Shown: positions 78 to 58,903, counted from the stretch's first letter. The stretch: DNA of 58,903 nt from a bacterium (GCA_021107795.1 JAIOSB010000009.1:1-58903); one strand, 5' to 3'. Notes: generated by a model from the sequence alone, not told the origin. Translations and numbers: made by a program.

Positions 78-213
78 ATTGTGTAAATAATAATAATTAA
101 AATTGGCTATACCACACGGGGAGATCTATCACTCTAAGCAGTTACGTAGAACGCACTCACTCAAATAGCGTGAAGATTATAACACATACCATTCAAATAA
201 GATATAGGGTAGA

Positions 214-1032
214 ATGATGAACATGAATAACGAAATAAAAGAGTTTTTTGAAGAGAATAGTATAGAAGGAATAGTGTTTGATTTAGACAGTACATTGACA
301 GACACAAAGAGCTGGCTGTTATTTCTGTATAAGAAATTCTCAATTAGAATATCCACATATATTAATAAAAAATACAGGCTGTCAATTAATACAGAGGATT
401 TTACCCAAGCATACTATCAATCAGAATTTATAGAATACAAAATGGGGAATGTTAACTTCGTGACTAGATTCCCCAGCTCCATATCAAGAACCCTCAGCTC
501 TCTTAAACTAAATAATCTTGACGAAAAAGATATCGTTAACAAATTTACAGAACAGATTAAAGAAATCTATACCCTCTCTGCAGACCCTTTCGATGGTACA
601 CTAGAACTTTTACACACCCTCCTAGCTTTCACAAAAGTAGCAATATGTACACACTCAGGAGAAGACTGGACCAAAATTAAGATGAATTCTTTAAAATCGA
701 AGTATAAAGAACTCTATGGCAACATACCCGATATATACTCCTACTATGTTGATATAAATAAACCCAAAAACACATCAGAATGGATTAAAGCAGCCAATAC
801 AACAAATTCAACTCCAGAAAAACTAATAGCCGTGGGCGACAATTTTGATGCTGACATCCTCCCTGCAGTAGAAGCAGGATATAAATATATCATATGGCTA
901 TCATTATACAACGATGACAAGGAACAGGATATAAAGAAATTAAAAAGCCAAGGAGTAAATATTGCTGTAATCAAGCACATCAAAGAGTTAGAGAACCTCC
1001 TTACATCAAACCAACCCTTTGAAGATATTTAA
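214..1032 (+). CDS. HAD-superfamily hydrolase
   Basis: HAD motif I DLDSTLTD lies near the N-terminus and a GDNFDADI acidic motif near the C-terminus. The substrate is unknown. Confidence 0.7.
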   Translation: MMNMNNEIKEFFEENSIEGIVFDLDSTLTDTKSWLLFLYKKFSIRISTYINKKYRLSINTEDFTQAYYQSEFIEYKMGNVNFVTRFPSSISRTLSSLKLNNLDEKDIVNKFTEQIKEIYTLSADPFDGTLELLHTLLAFTKVAICTHSGEDWTKIKMNSLKSKYKELYGNIPDIYSYYVDINKPKNTSEWIKAANTTNSTPEKLIAVGDNFDADILPAVEAGYKYIIWLSLYNDDKEQDIKKLKSQGVNIAVIKHIKELENLLTSNQPFEDI

Positions 1033-3644: not shown

Positions 3645-4913
3645 ATGCTAACCACTTTCTACATCAAAACATACGGTTGTGCTATGAACATAGCGGATAG
3701 TAATACCATTCGTAATCTACTCACATCATACTCCCTACAAGAAAGCAGTGATTGGAAAAGCGCAGATCTCATCATACTTCTCACATGCAGTATTAGACAA
3801 CAAGCAGAAGACAAAGTAGCAGGGTGGGGGATAAAAGCAAATGAAGAGATATTTGAAGATAAGATTGTCATATTAACTGGATGTATGGCACAAAGATACA
3901 ACAGAAGCTCCAACTCAACCATAGATAAATATGAGAAACTCTTACAAAAAAGATTCCCTTGGATTACACACCTCATCAATATTAAAGATATAAATCAACT
4001 ACCAAAGATTTTAGGAATTGATAATAACGATTTGATTGAGAATCCAAATATTAACTTTGACAGAAATAATAAATACCAAGGACTCTTTTCGATATCTCAT
4101 GGCTGTAACAACTTCTGCTCATACTGCATTGTTCCATATACAAGAGGTAAGCTATTCCATATCCCAAAGGAAGAAATACTTAAAGATATAAAGGATTTCA
4201 TATCCAATGGAGGGAAACTAGTCACTCTACTTGGTCAAAATGTAAACAGTTGGGAAGATGACGGTGATAATATTGTAGACCTACTGAAAGAAATTTCAAA
4301 CATCAAAGGAAAGTTCTGGATTAATTTCATCTCTTCACATCCAAAAGATTTCTCAGATGAATTGATAGAGTTAATTACAACAAATGAAAAACTTCTTAAA
4401 CACTGCCATATTGCAGCACAGTCAGGCTCAAACAGAATCCTTAGATTGATGAACAGAGGATATACCAAGGATAGATTTCTAAACATTTGTAAAAAGATTA
4501 AGACCTCATGCCCTGACTTTAGAATTACAACTGATGTAATCGTGGGGTTCCCTTCAGAAACAGAAGACGATTTTAATGATTCCATATCCTTAATCAAAGA
4601 ATGTAGAGTTGAGATGGTCTATATTGGGAAGTTTTCACCAAGAGAGAGTAGTGTAGCATATGATATGAACGATGATGTAGAGTTTAATGTCAAAAAGGAT
4701 AGAGAGGAAGTTATTAGAAAGTTAGTAAACAAGGTTAGAGAAAAGAAGCATAAAGAATGGATAGGTAAGGCGCTCCCTGTATTAGTAATTAGTAAGAACA
4801 AGGGTATTACATACTACAACCATGAAGTTTTGTTAGAAAAAGAATATAAAGAGGGGAGTATACAAAATATTAAGATTATTGGATACAGCAGAAGTGGATT
4901 AGTAGGAATCTAA
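3645..4913 (+). CDS. MiaB/RimO-family radical-SAM methylthiotransferase
   Basis: An N-terminal UPF0004-like region (YIKTYGCAMN), a radical-SAM cluster motif CNNFCSYCIVPYTRG and a TRAM-like C-terminal region. Confidence 0.85.
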   Translation: MLTTFYIKTYGCAMNIADSNTIRNLLTSYSLQESSDWKSADLIILLTCSIRQQAEDKVAGWGIKANEEIFEDKIVILTGCMAQRYNRSSNSTIDKYEKLLQKRFPWITHLINIKDINQLPKILGIDNNDLIENPNINFDRNNKYQGLFSISHGCNNFCSYCIVPYTRGKLFHIPKEEILKDIKDFISNGGKLVTLLGQNVNSWEDDGDNIVDLLKEISNIKGKFWINFISSHPKDFSDELIELITTNEKLLKHCHIAAQSGSNRILRLMNRGYTKDRFLNICKKIKTSCPDFRITTDVIVGFPSETEDDFNDSISLIKECRVEMVYIGKFSPRESSVAYDMNDDVEFNVKKDREEVIRKLVNKVREKKHKEWIGKALPVLVISKNKGITYYNHEVLLEKEYKEGSIQNIKIIGYSRSGLVGI

Positions 4914-5308
4914 GTGTATATTCTAGATTCAAGGACACCTACTAAACTAATTTTTCTGTTATACACCACATTATATCCATAGGCTTCTATTAAATGCGAA
5001 GACTCCAGCAACTCTCCATTTCTGTCAAAGACAAAACGTTTAATAAAATGTCTTTCTTCATCTACAGTCTCAAACATCGTATACACCATACCACCATACA
5101 CAAGATTACACTTATCGATATCGAAATGATAATATTTATCATTTATCATCTCCTCATCCAAAACTTCTTCATACCAAGACTGGGAACCACGAAAAGGATA
5201 CTCCTCTTCTATACGTTCAACTATTTGCTGAATAAACTCGGCGTTTTGAGTCTTTTCATTTAACAGTTGTTTCTCTTGTAAGGCTAACATAATCCGACAT
5301 TTTATCAT
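4910..5308 (-). CDS. hypothetical protein
   Basis: A 132-aa ORF fills the gap between the MiaB-like gene and def. No motif was recognised. It overlaps the convergent MiaB-like stop by 4 nt. Confidence 0.45.
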   Translation of the reverse strand: MIKCRIMLALQEKQLLNEKTQNAEFIQQIVERIEEEYPFRGSQSWYEEVLDEEMINDKYYHFDIDKCNLVYGGMVYTMFETVDEERHFIKRFVFDRNGELLESSHLIEAYGYNVVYNRKISLVGVLESRIYT

Positions 5309-13412: not shown

Positions 13413-14553
13413 GAAGATATTAATAACAGGAGGTGGAAGTGGAGGACATGTCTCTGTCGCCTCTGCACTAATTGATGGTATTAGAGAAAAATATCCAGAA
13501 AGCTATAAACATCTCACTTACATAGGAGGAGATCTCGCTATGATAGGAGAACAGTATGGACAATCTATAGAGCAAAAGCTCTTCAAAGATGCAGACTTCA
13601 AATGTTACTACATTAGAGCTGGGAAACTACAAAGAAGTTTCTCCTTCTCTTCTCTCAAACTATGCTTACGAACAATACTCGGTTTTAAAGATGCTTTTAA
13701 GCTTATCAAAGATATTAAACCAGACCTCATCTTCTCCTCTGGCGGATTTGTGAGTGTTCCAGTTTGTATAGCAGGATGGTTACAATCTATACCAATCTAC
13801 CTACACGAACAAACAGCTGCAGTAGGCTTAGCCAATCAAATTGTAGGGAAATTCGCTAAAAAGATATTTATCACTTTCAATTCCTCTAAACAATATTTTA
13901 ATAACAAGAATGTAATTCAAACTGGCAATGTAGTAAGAACCTCAATACTTAACAAAAAAGGAGAGGGAAAGAATGTAGAAAAGATTAAGAATATGAAAGA
14001 TGGTAAATTGTCAATTATATACATTTCCGGTGGAGGACTTGGTTCACACAAACTTAACACATATATATTAGAAAACTTAGACCTTTTACTAAGAGATTAC
14101 AATGTAATTTTACAAATGGGAGACAACCAAGTTTTTAAAGACTATGATTTTGCAACAAAGATTCAGAGTCAATTAAATTCAAACCTTCAAGACAGATTCC
14201 TTCCAGTCAAATACTTCAACGAAAAAGAAATGGGGTTTGTTTTCCACAACATAGATCTCTATATCGGTAGAGCAGGTGCCAATACTGTCTACGAGATCGG
14301 AGTATTACAAATCCCTTCCATCTTTATCCCAATCCCATGGGTTACACATGATGAGCAAACAAAAAACGCACAAACTTTAGCGAGCCTTGGCTTATCTGAA
14401 ATTCTACCCGAAAAGGATCTTAGCTCTATCAACATCTCTGTATATATCAAAGACTTCTTAAGTCGAGAATTAGGAGTTAACAAAAAGAAAATAGCGATTC
14501 TTTTTCCTACAACAGCCCTAGAACAAATTCTTTCACATATCTTTGTATTATGA
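13396..14553 (+). CDS. murG: undecaprenyldiphospho-muramoylpentapeptide beta-N-acetylglucosaminyltransferase
   Basis: The N-terminal ITGGGSGGHV loop and a GT28 layout. ATG at 13396 overlaps the ftsW end. Confidence 0.9.
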   Translation: MGRNNRKILITGGGSGGHVSVASALIDGIREKYPESYKHLTYIGGDLAMIGEQYGQSIEQKLFKDADFKCYYIRAGKLQRSFSFSSLKLCLRTILGFKDAFKLIKDIKPDLIFSSGGFVSVPVCIAGWLQSIPIYLHEQTAAVGLANQIVGKFAKKIFITFNSSKQYFNNKNVIQTGNVVRTSILNKKGEGKNVEKIKNMKDGKLSIIYISGGGLGSHKLNTYILENLDLLLRDYNVILQMGDNQVFKDYDFATKIQSQLNSNLQDRFLPVKYFNEKEMGFVFHNIDLYIGRAGANTVYEIGVLQIPSIFIPIPWVTHDEQTKNAQTLASLGLSEILPEKDLSSINISVYIKDFLSRELGVNKKKIAILFPTTALEQILSHIFVL

Positions 14554-54203: not shown

Positions 54204-54280
54204 GGGCGATTAGCTCAGCTGGCTAGAGCATCACATTGACATTGTGGAGGTCACAGGTTCGAGTCCCGTATCGCCCACCA
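54204..54280 (+). tRNA. tRNA-Val (anticodon GAC), CCA encoded
   Basis: Acceptor GGGCGAT/ATCGCCC, D-arm GCTC-AGCTGGCTA-GAGC, anticodon stem TCACA/TGTGG with loop TTGACAT, T-arm ACAGG-TTCGAGT-CCCGT (one A-C mismatch), then ACCA. Confidence 0.85.
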
Positions 54281-54319
54281 CAGGGATTCTTTTAACATTT
54301 ATTTTTATAGTTATCAAAT

Positions 54320-56044
54320 ATGAAAGAAGTATTATGTCCTCATTGTCAGAGAGGGTTAGTATTGGATAGTGATGATTTGAATCTTGAGGTGATAAGATGT
54401 CCCGCTTGTGGAGAATTCTTTCTTTTGTCGGAAGCAGAAGAAGGAGAGGATGGGGATGATCTGTTGTTGATAAACATTGAGACGAAACATAACCAAGATG
54501 GATCAGTGAAGGCAAGAAGTGGTTATAAAGCCAATATAGGTAGTAAATCACTTAATCGTGTCATAAAGATTTCTGCGGATAGTAAATATGAATTATCAGA
54601 AAAGATAAGAGAAAAAGCATATGACCTTAAAGAACAAGCGAAAGCGGAAAAATCGTCTCTAGGGATTGAAGAGCAAATGACAATGTTACAAGAAATCTTG
54701 AAAGATGGAATCACGAAGAAGATAGATTTCAAATGGGAAGATGGAAAGAGGGAAGATGCATTTGGAAAGAAGAAGCCTACATTTCAAAAGTCTAAGCCAA
54801 AAAGAGGGGATGTCTACCGTTCCCTTGGTTTCCTTAAAGCTGTTTTTAAGAAATATGCTGCTAAAAAGGATTTAGAATACGCACAAAAACTCAAAGAGCT
54901 TACTGCTGAATGGAAGAAAGAAAAACTCTCTTATGAAAAATCTTTAAATCAATGGGTTAAGGAGAACGAGGTCTTTGAGGAAGAGAAAAAGGAATTTAAT
55001 AAAAAGATAGATAAAAAAATAGAAAAACAAAAAATAGGAGAAAAGGTAATCATTGAAGAATACTTTAGGAATATTCTTACTGAATCAGAATATCCGTCAT
55101 CTTTCTCTAAAAAATTTGATTTGGGATATAATGAAGAAGAAAAGATGTTGGTTGTTGAATATACCTTACCAGAATATGAAACCATTCCTAAATATCAAAG
55201 GGAGGACTATATTAGGAAAACAGGGGAAAGGAAAAAAGTCCCTCTATCAGAATCAGCAAGAGAAAGATTGTATAACAATATCCTTTATTCAATTCCTCTA
55301 AGAACGCTGCATGAGATTTTTGTAAATGATAAATATGAAAATGTTGAGAGTGCTGTGTTTAATGGATGGGTAGACACTCTTGATAAGGCTAAAGGTAAGA
55401 GGAAGATAATATGTATTCTTACTGTACATGCTAAGAAGGAAGACTTCTTAGACATAGCTCTTGAGAAGGTTGAACCTAAGGCTTGTTTCAAAGGTTTGAA
55501 AGGTGTAGGGAGTAGTAAATTGAGTAGTCTTGCACCAGTAGCTCCGATATTAAAACTAGATAAAGAGGATAGAAGATTCATAAAGGCAGAAGAAGTTTTA
55601 AATGATGTTGATATATCTATGAATATTGCGGCAATGGATTGGGAAGATTTTGAACATTTGGTTAGAGAAGTGTTTGAACAAGAGTTTGCTCAGTCAGGGA
55701 TGGAAGTTAAAGTTACACAATCCAGTAGAGATCTTGGAGTTGATGCAATTGCCTTTGATCCAGATCCATTCAGAGGGGGGAAGATAATCATACAGGCGAA
55801 GAGATATACAAATACTGTTAAGGTAGAGTCTGTAAGGGCTTTGTATGGGATTATGCAAGATGAGGGTGCAATGAAGGGGATTATCGTTACGACGTCGGAT
55901 TATGGTCCAGATGCCTATAAGTTTGCTCAAGGAAAACCAATTACACTAATAAACGGGAATAACCTATTGTCTATGCTTGAAAAATATGGTCATAGGGCAA
56001 GGATAGACCTTAAAGAAGCTAAAAAGCTATTACTGGAGGAGTAG
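54320..56044 (+). CDS. Zn-ribbon / coiled-coil / Mrr-type (PD-(D/E)xK) restriction-endonuclease-domain protein
   Basis: N-terminal CPHCQ and CPACG knuckles and a long Lys/Glu-rich coiled-coil. The C-terminal Mrr_cat pattern reads WEDFEHLVREVFE, then DLGVDAIAF, IIIQAKRY and GIIVTTSDYGPDAYKFA. Confidence 0.75.
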   Translation: MKEVLCPHCQRGLVLDSDDLNLEVIRCPACGEFFLLSEAEEGEDGDDLLLINIETKHNQDGSVKARSGYKANIGSKSLNRVIKISADSKYELSEKIREKAYDLKEQAKAEKSSLGIEEQMTMLQEILKDGITKKIDFKWEDGKREDAFGKKKPTFQKSKPKRGDVYRSLGFLKAVFKKYAAKKDLEYAQKLKELTAEWKKEKLSYEKSLNQWVKENEVFEEEKKEFNKKIDKKIEKQKIGEKVIIEEYFRNILTESEYPSSFSKKFDLGYNEEEKMLVVEYTLPEYETIPKYQREDYIRKTGERKKVPLSESARERLYNNILYSIPLRTLHEIFVNDKYENVESAVFNGWVDTLDKAKGKRKIICILTVHAKKEDFLDIALEKVEPKACFKGLKGVGSSKLSSLAPVAPILKLDKEDRRFIKAEEVLNDVDISMNIAAMDWEDFEHLVREVFEQEFAQSGMEVKVTQSSRDLGVDAIAFDPDPFRGGKIIIQAKRYTNTVKVESVRALYGIMQDEGAMKGIIVTTSDYGPDAYKFAQGKPITLINGNNLLSMLEKYGHRARIDLKEAKKLLLEE

Positions 56045-56174
56045 TCCTGCTCGTCATTGAAATGAATGATGTCTTCTGGTTTTATAAGTTTGTTTTCCTC
56101 TCTTGTATTACAGAAGAAAGCCAAAGAAATATATGCTTAATTTCAAATTAGCATTATTAACTGTATTGGGTTTT

Positions 56175-56206
56175 TAAGTTCCATGCTACTCAGTATCGCC
56201 CACCAC
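56175..56206 (+). repeat. direct repeat R1: pseudo-3'-end of tRNA-Val
   Basis: TAAGTTCCATGCTACTCAGTATCGCCCACCAC. The 12 nt TATCGCCCACCA equal the last 12 nt of the tRNA-Val gene. Confidence 0.85.
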
Positions 56207-56234
56207 TTCCTCCTATAATTTGGTATAATTACTC

Positions 56235-56837
56235 ATGAAAATATTTTTCATCAGACATGGAGAAACAGATAAAAATGTCGGGAGGAATTTACACGAGAAG
56301 GGAGATAGCGAAACTTTAAATCAAACGGGTGTAGAGCAAATAGAAAAAACTGCGGAAATATTAAGAAATGCAAAGATATCTGTAATATTTTGTTCCAAAG
56401 AAACACGAGCACAAAAAAGTTCCGAAATACTTTCCAATATTCTTGAATGTCCAACTATACAAATAGATGGCTTTGAGGAAAGAAACTGGGGTGTTTATTC
56501 AAATAGGCCTTGGAGTGATGTAAAGGAAGTACTTGACCCTCTTACTCTTGAAGAGAGATATACCTATGTTCCTCCAGAGGGTGAATCATGGGAGATTTTT
56601 GAGAAGAGACTTATAGAAGCATTAACAGAATCTATAAAGAAAGGGGATGATGAGAATATTGGTATTGTAACGCATGGAGGCGCTATTAGAGCCTTAATTC
56701 CCTACCTATTAGGAGTTTCTAAGGAGGAAAGTTTTAAGTATGATCCCGCGAATGCGTCAATTACTGAATTTGATTACGATGGAAAGATTTTTACGAGACA
56801 AAGGATAGATGATACTTCTCATCTATTAAATAAATAG
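56235..56837 (+). CDS. histidine phosphatase (phosphoglycerate-mutase-like) family protein
   Basis: N-terminal FIRHGET (RHG catalytic motif), a downstream SKETRAQKS, and VTHGGAIRAL containing the second catalytic His. Confidence 0.85.
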   Translation: MKIFFIRHGETDKNVGRNLHEKGDSETLNQTGVEQIEKTAEILRNAKISVIFCSKETRAQKSSEILSNILECPTIQIDGFEERNWGVYSNRPWSDVKEVLDPLTLEERYTYVPPEGESWEIFEKRLIEALTESIKKGDDENIGIVTHGGAIRALIPYLLGVSKEESFKYDPANASITEFDYDGKIFTRQRIDDTSHLLNK

Positions 56838-56857
56838 ATACGAGATAACTCTATTTC

Positions 56858-56889
56858 TAAGTTCCGTGCTATTTAATATCGCCCACTAT
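56858..56889 (+). repeat. direct repeat R2: pseudo-3'-end of tRNA-Val
   Basis: TAAGTTCCGTGCTATTTAATATCGCCCACTAT. It differs from R4 at 2 positions. Confidence 0.85.
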
Positions 56890-56908
56890 TTTCTGATATA
56901 ATTATGTA

Positions 56909-57379
56909 ATGATAACAAAGGACTTTTCTAATTTCGCGGACTCCCTAATTTTCCAACTCCCTTTTGATATTTCTAATTTAGAATTAGACCATTTCGGATA
57001 TCAATGCTCATCCGCAGAAAATTATGATAGCTTTAAGGTTGAATCTCAACAGATTGGTAATATGATTTCGGAAGAGATTGTTAGTGGGAGAAGAGTTTCT
57101 ATATTTAGATTTAAAGACAGGTTCAAGTACAAAAGTTTTGATATCCTAGGGTTTGAATTAGTAGAACCCAAAATAGGACAAGTTTGTGAATCAGAGTTAG
57201 ATCATTTAGAATTTGTGATTCCTGTATCTTTCGATGAGTATCTAATGACACATGAAAATGCTAACTGGGATATATCTGCTATGGAGAGAGAAGATTTCCC
57301 TAAGATAGTCTTGAAGTTGAATCATGATAAAAGTATTAAATTTCATACAAAGAATATCTTTGAGGAAATACCTGATTAG
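56909..57379 (+). CDS. small VOC/YecM-like (glyoxalase-fold) protein, tentative
   Basis: A 156-aa ORF with LDHFGYQC and LDHLEFVI, spaced like the paired metal-ligand strands of VOC-fold proteins. This is a weak, motif-only call. Confidence 0.45.
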   Translation: MITKDFSNFADSLIFQLPFDISNLELDHFGYQCSSAENYDSFKVESQQIGNMISEEIVSGRRVSIFRFKDRFKYKSFDILGFELVEPKIGQVCESELDHLEFVIPVSFDEYLMTHENANWDISAMEREDFPKIVLKLNHDKSIKFHTKNIFEEIPD

Positions 57380-57407
57380 ATATTTAATACAAGAGAGAAA
57401 CTATTTC

Positions 57408-57439
57408 TAAGTTCCATGCTCTCAAGTATCGCCCACCAT
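57408..57439 (+). repeat. direct repeat R3: pseudo-3'-end of tRNA-Val
   Basis: TAAGTTCCATGCTCTCAAGTATCGCCCACCAT. It shares the left flank ACTATTTC with R2. Confidence 0.85.
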
Positions 57440-57522
57440 TTTGAAAATTTAAGCGGAAATTGGGGCTGTGCTGCAAAGAATTATCCATACATCAGGATTC
57501 TATCCTCCATTGAAGATAGGAC

Positions 57523-58506
57523 TTAACTAGAAACATTCAGTTTCGGGGTAATACCCATCATATGTAGAAGCCCAGGTTGTCTCCCCAGAGATGCAGCCCT
57601 AGGGTCCACCCACTTTTCAAAATAGTCTTTAAGAAGGACTCTTTGGGCTATTCTACAACGTGGCTCCACTATTGTGGCCGTACCGTCTTCTTTAATATCC
57701 GTGCCAAGCATAATATGGCCAGCACGATATTTCATACCACCAATTATTACAAATCCACCATCTTCACAAACAGCTTGTGCTCTTGAAAAAATATCAGGCC
57801 ATTCCGACTGGGGAACAATTCTTGTATATCTAGCACCATAGTTGGGCGCCAAAAACTCAGTTTTCGAAATGAGCTGTGGGGCTAAGGTCTTCAGAGCGTC
57901 GGGAAGTCCAACAAAATACATTGCATCATTCCAGGCAACATATTTGGCAGTGTAACCCCTTATATCTGTGAAGGTCTTCCCTTCAAGTGCGATATGAATA
58001 TCAGCAATGGTAATATCTGGAACTTTAGACGTATTTAAATACTCGCACATCTTTATAGCAGTAGCTATAGTTGCCAGTCCACAGCAGTTGTCAGAATCAA
58101 GAGTTCTAGGGTGTCTTAGGTACTCCTCCGGATCCAATTGAAACGTAAGAATTTTCCTAGTATTTTCACCCCATAATTTTGTAAAAAACTCTAGATCTCC
58201 CATTAATTCAATCCGCTCAGAAAGTGACAATTCCCATACATCAGGCGTTTCAGATGGAGTTACTGTTTCAGTTGGGGTGGGGGTTGGAGCATCTGGTGTC
58301 TCAGTTGGAGTCACTGGTGTCTCGGTTGGAGTCACTGGTGTCTCGGTTGGAGTCAGAGTTGATGGAATTGTAGAAGTAGGAGGTAAGCCCTCACCGACGA
58401 GTGATTTGCGTACGCAGCCAGCTGCGATTGCACTAGCAGCTAATATACCTACGTTGATAGCATCTCGCCTTGATAACCCTCCAGATTCAGTCTTAGATTC
58501 AGTCAT
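57523..58506 (-). CDS. exported lipoprotein-like protein with Pro/Thr linker and Cys-peptidase-like domain
   Basis: ATG at 58506 gives MTESKTESGGLSRRDAINVGILAASAIAAGC (twin-Arg-like n-region plus a lipobox-like AAGC). Then come three TPTETPV units and a globular domain with DNCCGLATIA and AGHIML (possible Cys/His dyad). It is visibly richer in G+C than its neighbours. The ORF is open to the TTG at 58542. Confidence 0.6.
   Translation of the reverse strand: MTESKTESGGLSRRDAINVGILAASAIAAGCVRKSLVGEGLPPTSTIPSTLTPTETPVTPTETPVTPTETPDAPTPTPTETVTPSETPDVWELSLSERIELMGDLEFFTKLWGENTRKILTFQLDPEEYLRHPRTLDSDNCCGLATIATAIKMCEYLNTSKVPDITIADIHIALEGKTFTDIRGYTAKYVAWNDAMYFVGLPDALKTLAPQLISKTEFLAPNYGARYTRIVPQSEWPDIFSRAQAVCEDGGFVIIGGMKYRAGHIMLGTDIKEDGTATIVEPRCRIAQRVLLKDYFEKWVDPRAASLGRQPGLLHMMGITPKLNVSS
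58295..58357. repeat. 3 x 21-nt tandem repeat inside the lipoprotein-like gene
   Basis: GGTGTCTC(A/G)GTTGGAGTCACT twice, then a third unit ending AGA. It encodes (TPTETPV)3 on the minus strand. Confidence 0.9.
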
Positions 58507-58626
58507 GGAAGGATAATAACCTATAACAATGATATCCGTCAAGCAAAACTAGTAGTATATTCCCAACTACTAATTCAACAAATCTAAAAGACATTTAGAA
58601 ATCTAAGAGAAATGTCATTCTCTTCT

Positions 58627-58658
58627 TAAGTTCCATGCTATTTAATATCGCCCACCAT
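58627..58658 (+). repeat. direct repeat R4: pseudo-3'-end of tRNA-Val
   Basis: TAAGTTCCATGCTATTTAATATCGCCCACCAT. Confidence 0.85.
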
Positions 58659-58704
58659 TCTCTCCATATATTGCCATCCACACAATATAGCCATATACTA
58701 CAAG

Positions 58705-58903
58705 ATGTCAAATCCTAGTGTAATGTCTGAAAAAGAACCTATCAACAACGAACTTAATTGTATCGTGAACGAAGAAAGAGCAATAGAAGTTATTCAACTT
58801 GCACTCGCCGAATATAACAATCCCGAAAGTAAATTCTTCAAAGACAAAAATCAGCCAGAAGAAAGTTACATAAACTTTCTAATAGAAAAAGACGTAAATG
58901 ACA
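58705..58903 (+). CDS. hypothetical protein, N-terminal fragment running off the right edge
   Basis: ATG at 58705, open to the window end: MSNPSVMSEKEPINNELNCIVNEERAIEVIQLALAEYNNPESKFFKDKNQPEESYINFLIEKDVND. No motif was recognised. Confidence 0.4.
   Translation, partial: MSNPSVMSEKEPINNELNCIVNEERAIEVIQLALAEYNNPESKFFKDKNQPEESYINFLIEKDVND

Follow-up and report, generated by a model that had tools for sequence, protein, structure and literature searches.

Composite islands of the staphylococcal cassette chromosome (SCC) represent an established case in which cassettes without a recombinase are moved by the large serine recombinase (LSR) of a neighbouring unit (10.1101/2023.03.17.533233). Within this study, a bacterial DNA stretch of 58,903 nucleotides (GCA_021107795.1, JAIOSB010000009.1:1-58903; hereafter referred to as the window) was analysed, in which a tRNA-Val(GAC) gene is followed by a chain of single-gene units bounded by short direct repeats. 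It is proposed, at a probability of roughly 0.72, that these repeats are recombination sites of an LSR family which, in Dojkabacteria and related Patescibacteria, targets tRNA-Val at its 3' end, and that the array is an SCC-like, integron-like platform driven in trans. Direct support for this proposal comes from the anatomy of the sites, their restriction to tRNA-Val loci, their association with LSR genes, presence/absence and reshuffling of units at the repeats and the conservation of left arm and core only. An earlier note on the same DNA had taken the array to look like serial site-specific capture, integron-like and presumably mobilised in trans, and had known of no described system of this kind. 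Comparisons between genomes support the former view, movement of the cassettes itself being deduced. Regarding the latter, no description of the system was found in the literature, by which the existence of one is not excluded, and its logic has a precedent in SCC composite islands.

The likeness to SCC/SCCmec elements (recombinase Ccr; including psiSCC, ACME and COMER) comprises the use of an LSR, insertion at the 3' end of one conserved housekeeping gene, tandem units with direct attachment (att) repeats, many units that lack a recombinase and depend on that of a neighbouring unit, and a cargo rich in defence and resistance genes. Five units and no recombinase were found in the window, and in a related locus (L032) one LSR unit is accompanied by three recombinase-less units. 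However, SCC elements target rlmH, whereas the discriminator/CCA end of tRNA-Val is used here, and SCC units measure 3-60 kb, whereas the present array type consists of single-gene units of 0.4-1.9 kb, of which up to nine or more are lined up. Moreover, the cassette sites described here are one-armed, the hosts belong to the Patescibacteria, and mobilisation, which was shown experimentally for SCC, is here inferred from sequence.

Integrons and clusters of attC sites lacking integron-integrases (CALIN) resemble the array in carrying cassettes with a single open reading frame (ORF) at one chromosomal platform, with presumed entry at the platform-proximal side. Furthermore, the same cassettes recur in different order among arrays, an integrase is not always adjacent, and GNAT, APH, NUDIX and defence proteins are among the cargo. 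Integrons use a tyrosine recombinase, in contrast to the serine recombinase found here; the present sites are of a double-stranded, protein-arm type and form no hairpin, the end of a tRNA gene takes the place of attI, and cassettes are located on either strand, often with a promoter of their own. The array is made of different parts from an integron and works similarly, following an SCC-like logic that is already known.

Tycheposons and Islander-type islands also use a tRNA gene as integration site, push older material outward and contain partial tRNA-end repeats within a hypervariable island (10.1101/2020.12.28.424599). These elements are multi-kb in size, mostly encode their own tyrosine integrase, often possess a replication module and are bounded by true displaced tRNA fragments, whereas the units described here are single-gene and recombinase-less, bear a conserved arm unrelated to tRNA and would exchange only the CCA and what follows it; most of the identity with the tRNA is located past the presumed crossover, towards the element. 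Since the window units (0.55-1.9 kb) contain a single gene each and no integrase, the locus does not represent a classical tRNA island. Phage LSR systems (phiC31, Bxb1, A118/LI, TP901-1) share the domain architecture of the recombinase, the ~58-bp two-armed pseudo-palindromic attP found in the autonomous elements described below and an outer motif at the zinc-ribbon footprint. They differ in that one insertion yields two hybrid sites; chains of one-armed sites are not known there, and a tRNA 3' end is unusual as an LSR target.

Patescibacteria (Candidate Phyla Radiation) possess very small genomes with few known types of mobile elements, and their gain and loss of accessory genes are little understood. 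The host of the window was assigned to Dojkabacteria because trigger-factor homologues carry the names candidate division WS6 and Candidatus Dojkabacteria. On the parent contig (L001; window position equals L001 position plus 46234), the array is surrounded by ordinary housekeeping genes. It comprises the following features, given in window coordinates (L009 and L012 are related loci introduced below):

54204..54280, plus strand: tRNA-Val(GAC) with encoded CCA, anchor of the array (ARAGORN; Rfam 63 bits)
54281..56164, plus strand: cassette 1, 574-aa protein with C-terminal Mrr-type restriction endonuclease domain (ORF 54320-56044; Pfam Mrr_cat, 8e-33)
56165..56207, plus strand: repeat R1, arm TTAAGTTCCATGC, 12-nt spacer and core CCC-AC-CAC (nhmmer E=2.5e-12; L001 9931-9973)
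56208..56847, plus strand: cassette 2, histidine phosphatase of 200 aa (ORF 56235-56837; Pfam His_Phos_1, 2e-39)
56848..56890, plus strand: repeat R2, CTAAGTTCCGTGC followed further on by CCC-AC-TAT, one C>T in the core (E=3.3e-11)
56891..57397, plus strand: cassette 3, YecM-family (VOC-fold) protein of 156 aa (ORF 56909-57379; Pfam YecM, 2e-16)
57398..57440, plus strand: repeat R3 (E=1.4e-12), breakpoint of the presence/absence difference to L009/L012
57441..58616, minus strand: cassette 4, 339-aa protein (327 aa from the first ATG; ORF 57523-58542), opposite to the array strand
58617..58660, plus strand: repeat R4, equal to the consensus of all copies (E=2.3e-13), 44 nt identical in L009/L012
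58661..58903, plus strand: start of cassette 5 (ORF from 58705; 325 aa on the parent contig)

The four same-strand repeat copies reported in the earlier note were recovered: its 32-mer pattern occurs at 56175, 56858, 57408 and 58627, in all cases on the plus strand, and yielded 0 matches in 100 shuffles. Likewise, the last 12 nt of the tRNA gene (TATCGCCCACCA) proved to be identical in R1, R3 and R4, with one C>T in R2, and within the 58.9-kb window this 12-mer is confined to the tRNA end and the four repeats. For the left block of the repeat (TAAGTTCCRTGCT), no other exact or one-mismatch copy was detected in the window, and two further matches with two mismatches each are within chance expectation. 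As the note had stated, each of the five units contains one long ORF and the encoded functions are unrelated (Mrr_cat, His_Phos_1, YecM and two proteins, those of cassettes 4 and 5, without Pfam match); the minus-strand cassette 4 is G+C-richer than the others (0.41-0.44 vs 0.31-0.38). Its 339-aa product features an N-terminal hydrophobic segment and a linker of tandem TPTETPV repeats (window 58240-58350). On extension of the contig, which the note had recommended, a candidate degenerate fifth repeat with a 1-nt indel was recognised by eye beyond the window, after the 325-aa ORF (L001 ~13465-13497); it is possible only, nhmmer giving no report at E<10. No other dispersed copy of the repeat was present in the additional 8 kb or in the rest of the 58.9 kb, and these 8 kb did not contain a recombinase gene either.

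Concerning a recombinase, the note had regarded its lack in all genomes with such arrays as an argument against capture. Actually, an LSR of ~600 aa adjoins tRNA-Val in seven loci, and the conserved repeat is located at the far end of the element in 4/4 loci long enough to show it. In locus L028 (12.97 kb, from a viral collection), a terminal tRNA-Val(GAC) is separated by 12.5 kb from a full repeat. The tRNA-adjacent gene encodes a 601-aa LSR (Resolvase PF00239, 3e-30; Recombinase PF07508, 1e-21; Zn_ribbon_recom PF13408), and the element also encodes an FtsK/SpoIIIE protein, a small-terminase-like protein and an Eco57I-type restriction-modification enzyme. LSR homologues showing 56-91% identity, each adjoining tRNA-Val, were identified in L030/L031, L032, L033, L034, L035 and L036; five of these six loci correspond to the clpP-tig-sortase locus of the window, and L036 is located at tRNA-Val(TAC)/tRNA-Leu(GAG). 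In L030, a single repeat closes a 10.5-kb element with an Mrr homologue inside, and in L032 an ~8-kb LSR element is followed by the three recombinase-less units mentioned above, among them YecM and NUDIX units. The nearest solved relatives of the LSR are a serine integrase (9iu2) and TP901-1 integrase. Candidate recombinase-bearing relatives in the window's own samples were rejected, since P0002 and P0004 derive from other samples.

The end of the LSR ORF overlaps the 3' end of tRNA-Val in antisense, entering the tRNA gene by ~30 nt (L028 12871-12900; L030 and L032 11765-11794). The last ~10 LSR codons are chromosome-derived and therefore would change on excision of the element. Furthermore, an ORF of ~135 aa without Pfam family is always located just upstream of the LSR gene, with 37-73% identity among six loci; its product may be a directionality factor or a regulator. 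The arm motif also occurs in inverted form (TTAAGTTCCATG) 20-30 nt upstream of the LSR start codon, where it could be an autoregulatory binding site. The positions of both features are:

L028 10670-11077; L030 9567-9968; L032 9565-9975; L034 9556-9966; L035 287-700; L036 802-1212: ORF of ~135 aa upstream of the LSR gene
L028 11077-11092; L030 9968-9983; L032 9972-9985; L033 458-471: inverted arm motif TTAAGTTCCATG

An attP site was reconstructed by joining the far-end repeat of L028 to the sequence following its tRNA. The resulting site reads TTAAGTTCCATGC, 12 nt, CCCACCAT, 12 nt, GCCTGTAACTTAG, with TTAAGTTCCATGC at -17 to -29. Its second (P') arm is the reverse complement of the first at 10/13 positions and lies at the mirrored distance; the best centre of symmetry falls between CCCA and CCAT, with 16/30 complementary positions vs <=10 at other centres. 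Each of the five recombinase loci inspected for the P' arm (L028, L030, L032, L033, L034) retains it at an unchanged distance, and at cassette junctions, including all five in the window, no P' arm above background (<=8/13) was detected. The window repeats correspond to the P-arm half of attP, and because only left arm and core are kept, the cassette repeats are attR-type sites. On the basis of the symmetry centre, the crossover dinucleotide presumably is A73/C74 of tRNA-Val (54277-54278), the 3' part of tRNA-Val(GAC) presumably acting as the B arm of the chromosomal attachment site; integration would therefore swap only the encoded CCA and the sequence that follows.

In a sequence logo of 47 distinct copies, positions -30 to -17 are near-invariant, positions -11 to -5 show moderate conservation, the core CCC-AC-CA is conserved and background is reached from +6; some copies possess degenerate cores, with GC for AC or missing altogether. 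In the structure of phiC31 integrase, the zinc-ribbon domain covers attP at +/-17-27, and the contacts of the recombinase domain, at +/-4-15, are equally spaced in attP and attB. The outer conserved block of the repeat (-30 to -17) coincides with this zinc-ribbon footprint, and the equal spacing of the recombinase domain in attP and attB could explain the identity of the inner part with the acceptor strand of the tRNA. The left part of the repeat is accordingly read as a recombinase-arm motif. The earlier note had taken it for a diverged T-loop on account of its GTTC.A, which was not supported: when the arm motif was slid along the tRNA, the best match, in the T-loop region, was 7/13 at a 4-bp shift (shuffle p about 0.18), no better than chance. 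In an LSR system, the motif would be expected to lie nearer to the centre in attB than in attP by 5 bp.

Further to the left, a near-invariant A was observed at -44 from the presumed crossover (1.85 bits, 47 copies), with a second A at -38. These positions lie beyond the usual serine recombinase footprint of ~+/-30, and the A residues are present whichever direction the cassette ORF takes. The A at -44, ~15 nt left of the window repeats (e.g. 56842, 57392, 58611), often belongs to a TTAAR/CTAAR word echoing the start of the arm motif; R2 of the window has G there.

Three of the four window copies are located 20-50 nt upstream of a start codon, as would be expected if the repeat were a promoter, terminator or tRNA-like RNA-processing signal duplicated before genes. 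Moreover, -10-like hexamers were found past the core at 14/23 junctions at which the next ORF is forward, and TATAAT-like hexamers can be read just past the core ahead of the His_Phos_1 gene of cassette 2. However, such hexamers occur at 0/11 junctions followed by a reverse ORF and, since they track forward ORFs, the promoter is part of the cassette and not of the repeat, the -10 element being located outside the conserved block. Cassettes are also read in either direction, the repeat is restricted to tRNA-Val loci, with no copy elsewhere in the 59-kb window, both homology blocks and indels have their limits at the repeat, and neither an Rfam match nor a significant fold was obtained. An expression signal is therefore considered a very improbable explanation.

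The folding results also bear on a true integron, in which a tyrosine integrase would use attC sites folded from single strands. Typical cargo classes, a CALIN-like array without recombinase and cassettes of 0.4-1.9 kb with one ORF each would fit such a system. On DNA folding of the four window repeats, both strands yielded z-scores of -1.1 to +0.7 against shuffles and thus no hairpin; in Rfam searches only the tRNA itself matched, the repeats belonging to no RNA family. Moreover, no tyrosine recombinase was detected in any array or flank (no Phage_integrase in the examined window, L001, L024 and L026), and the enzyme associated with the repeats is a serine recombinase. Because tyrosine integrase and attC fold are both missing, the array is not regarded as an integron, a classification that appears hardly tenable.

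The distribution of the arrays is consistent with sites of an LSR family dedicated to tRNA-Val. Relaxed-pattern scans of species-representative genomes and metagenomes yielded 18 loci, and viral contigs added L028, giving a total of 19. The repeat is known from metagenome-assembled genomes (MAGs) of Dojkabacteria and other Patescibacteria and from metagenomes. The earlier note had considered a dispersal of the 32-mer throughout the genome as evidence against its proposal; instead, in every locus that includes a tRNA, the repeats follow tRNA-Val(GAC) or tRNA-Val(TAC) downstream, in tRNA orientation, and the tRNA-Val(GAC) arrays are usually located beside clpP-tig, like that of the window. A profile built from the copies detected nine repeats in L017 and six or seven in L018. 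Spacing in the arrays is 0.4-1.2 kb with a single ORF per interval on either strand, one-ORF intervals being present in the window, L007, L010, L011, L017 and L018. The repeats measure 33-45 bp, are direct and often >85% identical. Some short contigs (L011, L019, L021) start or end within a repeat, which is the behaviour expected of an assembler when alternative junctions coexist in a population.

The cargo of the arrays is of accessory, defence and resistance-like nature, and no recombinase was found inside any array scanned. It comprises Mrr, DndB+Schlafen, an Erm-type rRNA adenine methyltransferase, an APH-type kinase, GNAT and five NUDIX proteins, and furthermore GDSL and serine hydrolases, an amidohydrolase, LD-carboxypeptidase, nucleoside deoxyribosyltransferase-like proteins, AAA_18 kinases, ASCH and many proteins without assigned family. 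In L018 (5024-5039, minus strand), the first unit after the tRNA is closed by a tRNA-end copy, GTATCGCCCACCATTA, without recognisable left arm. In L020, a single-cassette locus encoding DndB+Schlafen (737 aa), the direct repeat (73-105 and 2447-2480) runs 14 nt past the core at both sides (TTCCTCATTTCTTG), which is the case at no other junction.

Differences in gene content between related loci are bounded by the repeats, and the gene order conserved in all relatives that the note had named as contrary evidence was not encountered. In the MAG JAIORF01 (L009; the same sequence in L012), the PPDK-sortase-tig-clpP flank shows 84% nucleotide identity over 5 kb, and tRNA-Val borders immediately on the stretch that comes after R3 in the window. 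L009/L012 therefore lack exactly cassettes 1-3 (Mrr, His-phosphatase, YecM). Two units common to the window contig and JAIORF01 are 92-98% identical (L001 11288-13994 vs L009 1-2803); compared to the 84% of the housekeeping flank, this suggests that the island may have been exchanged more recently than the core genome. The cassette 5 protein shows 97% identity in L009/L012, and the cassette 4 protein is only 75% identical in JAIORF01 despite 92% DNA identity.

Moreover, cassettes occupy different positions elsewhere, and the homology of shared cassettes extends from repeat to repeat. The window YecM unit, R2 through R3, shows 71% identity over 592 bp to the L032 YecM unit, which has different neighbours. 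Unit 1 of L017 (tRNA end to first repeat) matches unit 6 of L018 (repeat to repeat), and an Erm-like unit with 83% identity holds rank 3 in L011 and rank 1 in L023. L006 and L015 have the gene past the last repeat in common and differ in the units between that gene and the tRNA. In L038, both flanks (tRNA-Val, UDG) are as in the window contig; the ~6.5 kb between them are unrelated, and only two tRNA-proximal repeats are recognisable. A close relative, L037, has zero repeats after tRNA-Val. In this locus (4543-4619 and 5199-5275), two additional ORFs lie between clpP and tRNA-Val(GAC), and a DUF6512 gene and tRNA-Val(CAC) come after the latter.

These comparisons are relevant for two alternatives in which the cassettes are not moved by the recombinase at present. 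Each unit could be a fossil, namely the remnant of a full-length LSR element at tRNA-Val that was reduced to its distal cargo gene and distal site, so that cassettes would not be self-mobile. Full-length elements do exist and integrate ahead of existing arrays (L032), single-cassette genes also occur within LSR elements (DndB/SLFN in L020 and L032, Mrr in the window and L030), and several repeat copies are degenerate. However, arrays of seven to nine units would require as many integrations, each with a deletion ending exactly at the previous core, and the left arm is near-invariant in 47 copies with flanks at background. One unit is found at differing ranks in different arrays with homology confined repeat-to-repeat, and a 554-bp unit (L017 8264-8817 vs L023 1859-2412) is 95.7% identical, from the repeat onwards, between genomes whose other shared genes are ~70% identical. 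A fossil origin of the units is accordingly judged unlikely.

Alternatively, an LSR could have made the sites, with present shuffling resulting from RecA-dependent or slipped recombination between the ~45-bp repeats, e.g. after DNA uptake. The length, direct orientation and high identity of the repeats would permit this, a deletion from the tRNA end to R3 gives exactly the L009 structure, and the examined part of the contig does not contain a recombinase gene. However, the tRNA end and the repeats share only 12-13 nt, which is short for homologous exchange, and changes nonetheless concentrate at the tRNA-proximal end. Moreover, the block at the zinc-ribbon footprint is selectively conserved and not the whole repeat, which argues for recognition by a protein. 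Shuffling by homology is thus rated as rather improbable.

For LSR-driven recombination at tRNA-Val, the favoured explanation, the following course of events is proposed. Autonomous elements of 8-12.5 kb comprise the LSR gene, the ~135-aa partner gene and a two-armed attP; they would integrate at the discriminator/CCA boundary of tRNA-Val and generate a distal hybrid site of P arm and core. The window array represents a chain of five single-gene units, each ending in a one-armed site (P arm and CCCACCA) and beginning right past the preceding core, usually with its own -10-like promoter if the gene is forward. Growth and remodelling would proceed via site-specific recombination of the tRNA end (B arm) with P-arm sites: new units would enter beside the tRNA, and blocks of units would be excised as circles and inserted again, with altered order or in a different genome. 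The junction of a unit-1 circle would read ...TTAAGTTCCATGCTACTCAGTATCGCCCAC followed directly by CACAGGGATTCTTTTAAC, i.e. P arm and core joined to post-tRNA sequence. The recombinase would be supplied in trans, e.g. from an LSR element at another tRNA-Val locus (tRNA-Val(TAC)) or from a passing element. Within this scheme, we infer that the LSR acts on one-armed sites and is supplied in trans, that the crossover takes place at AC, and in which direction the events proceed.

Because only left arms are conserved, recombination of the tRNA end with a repeat formally pairs B with P and yields, once more, a B-type and a P-type site. Such behaviour would deviate from the strictly two-armed, unidirectional mode of phage integrases and be close to that of Ccr on SCC cassettes lacking a recombinase. 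Since substrates and products are of the same two kinds, the reaction would be reversible without a directionality factor. It is conceivable, albeit a tentative and rather doubtful idea, that an LSR recombines the tRNA B arm with P-arm-only sites in a reversible, iterative and directionality-factor-free manner, as the serine-recombinase counterpart of the integron. Capture of single-gene cassettes, their blockwise excision and their reshuffling at a tRNA gene would then be feasible.

Several results weigh against the interpretation of the array as an LSR-driven platform. Canonical LSRs depend on two-armed sites and leave hybrid sites unrecombined unless a directionality factor is present, so that it would be unusual for them to act on one-armed sites. 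Homologous or slipped deletion can likewise produce presence/absence differences at direct repeats, and the degenerate cores of some copies indicate decay. Five samples of the window's species have the same arrangement, i.e. there is no within-species polymorphism among them. The scan of viral contigs revealed no circular cassette junction or excised attP and only L028, in integrated form. Finally, a recombinase domain is absent from the called genes of window ~4,500-58,903 and the next 8 kb of the contig (~63 kb examined, contig ends of ~12.9 kb and ~6.9 kb lying outside), which agrees with the earlier observation that no integrase is in view and leaves activity in the window's genome hypothetical.

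The tRNA-Val locus looks like a dedicated and widely shared platform, a hypervariable slot of single-gene modules tagged with a recombinase site, and such an array may explain the swapping of accessory genes in Dojkabacteria. A serine-recombinase counterpart of the integron, if true, would give Dojkabacteria, and perhaps other Patescibacteria, a platform for gene exchange in general. LSRs are valued as genome-engineering tools because they are strictly directional; genuine activity of an LSR on one-armed sites would broaden the logic known for these enzymes and constitute a second, independent route to the integron strategy. The short sites (tRNA-Val end; ~33-nt P arm and core) and the compact LSR with its 135-aa partner make the proposal directly testable.

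Some minor observations concern the tRNA and the L028 element. In the T stem of the window tRNA-Val (54252-54268), an apparent A51-C63 mismatch (ACAGG/CCCGT) was seen by eye; the sequence is identical in L009, L028 and L032, and ARAGORN and Rfam scores are still good. Between the full repeat and a degenerate second repeat of L028, a G+C-rich segment of ~120 nt (200-365, minus strand) with a TATAAT box ahead contains no ORF, matches no Rfam family and is more stably folded than its shuffled versions (z = -2.55); possibly, this segment is a cassette with a small RNA. Furthermore, a LOOT RNA (RF03000; 56.5 bits vs a gathering score of 46.4) is located within the LSR element of L028 (10473-10601, minus strand).

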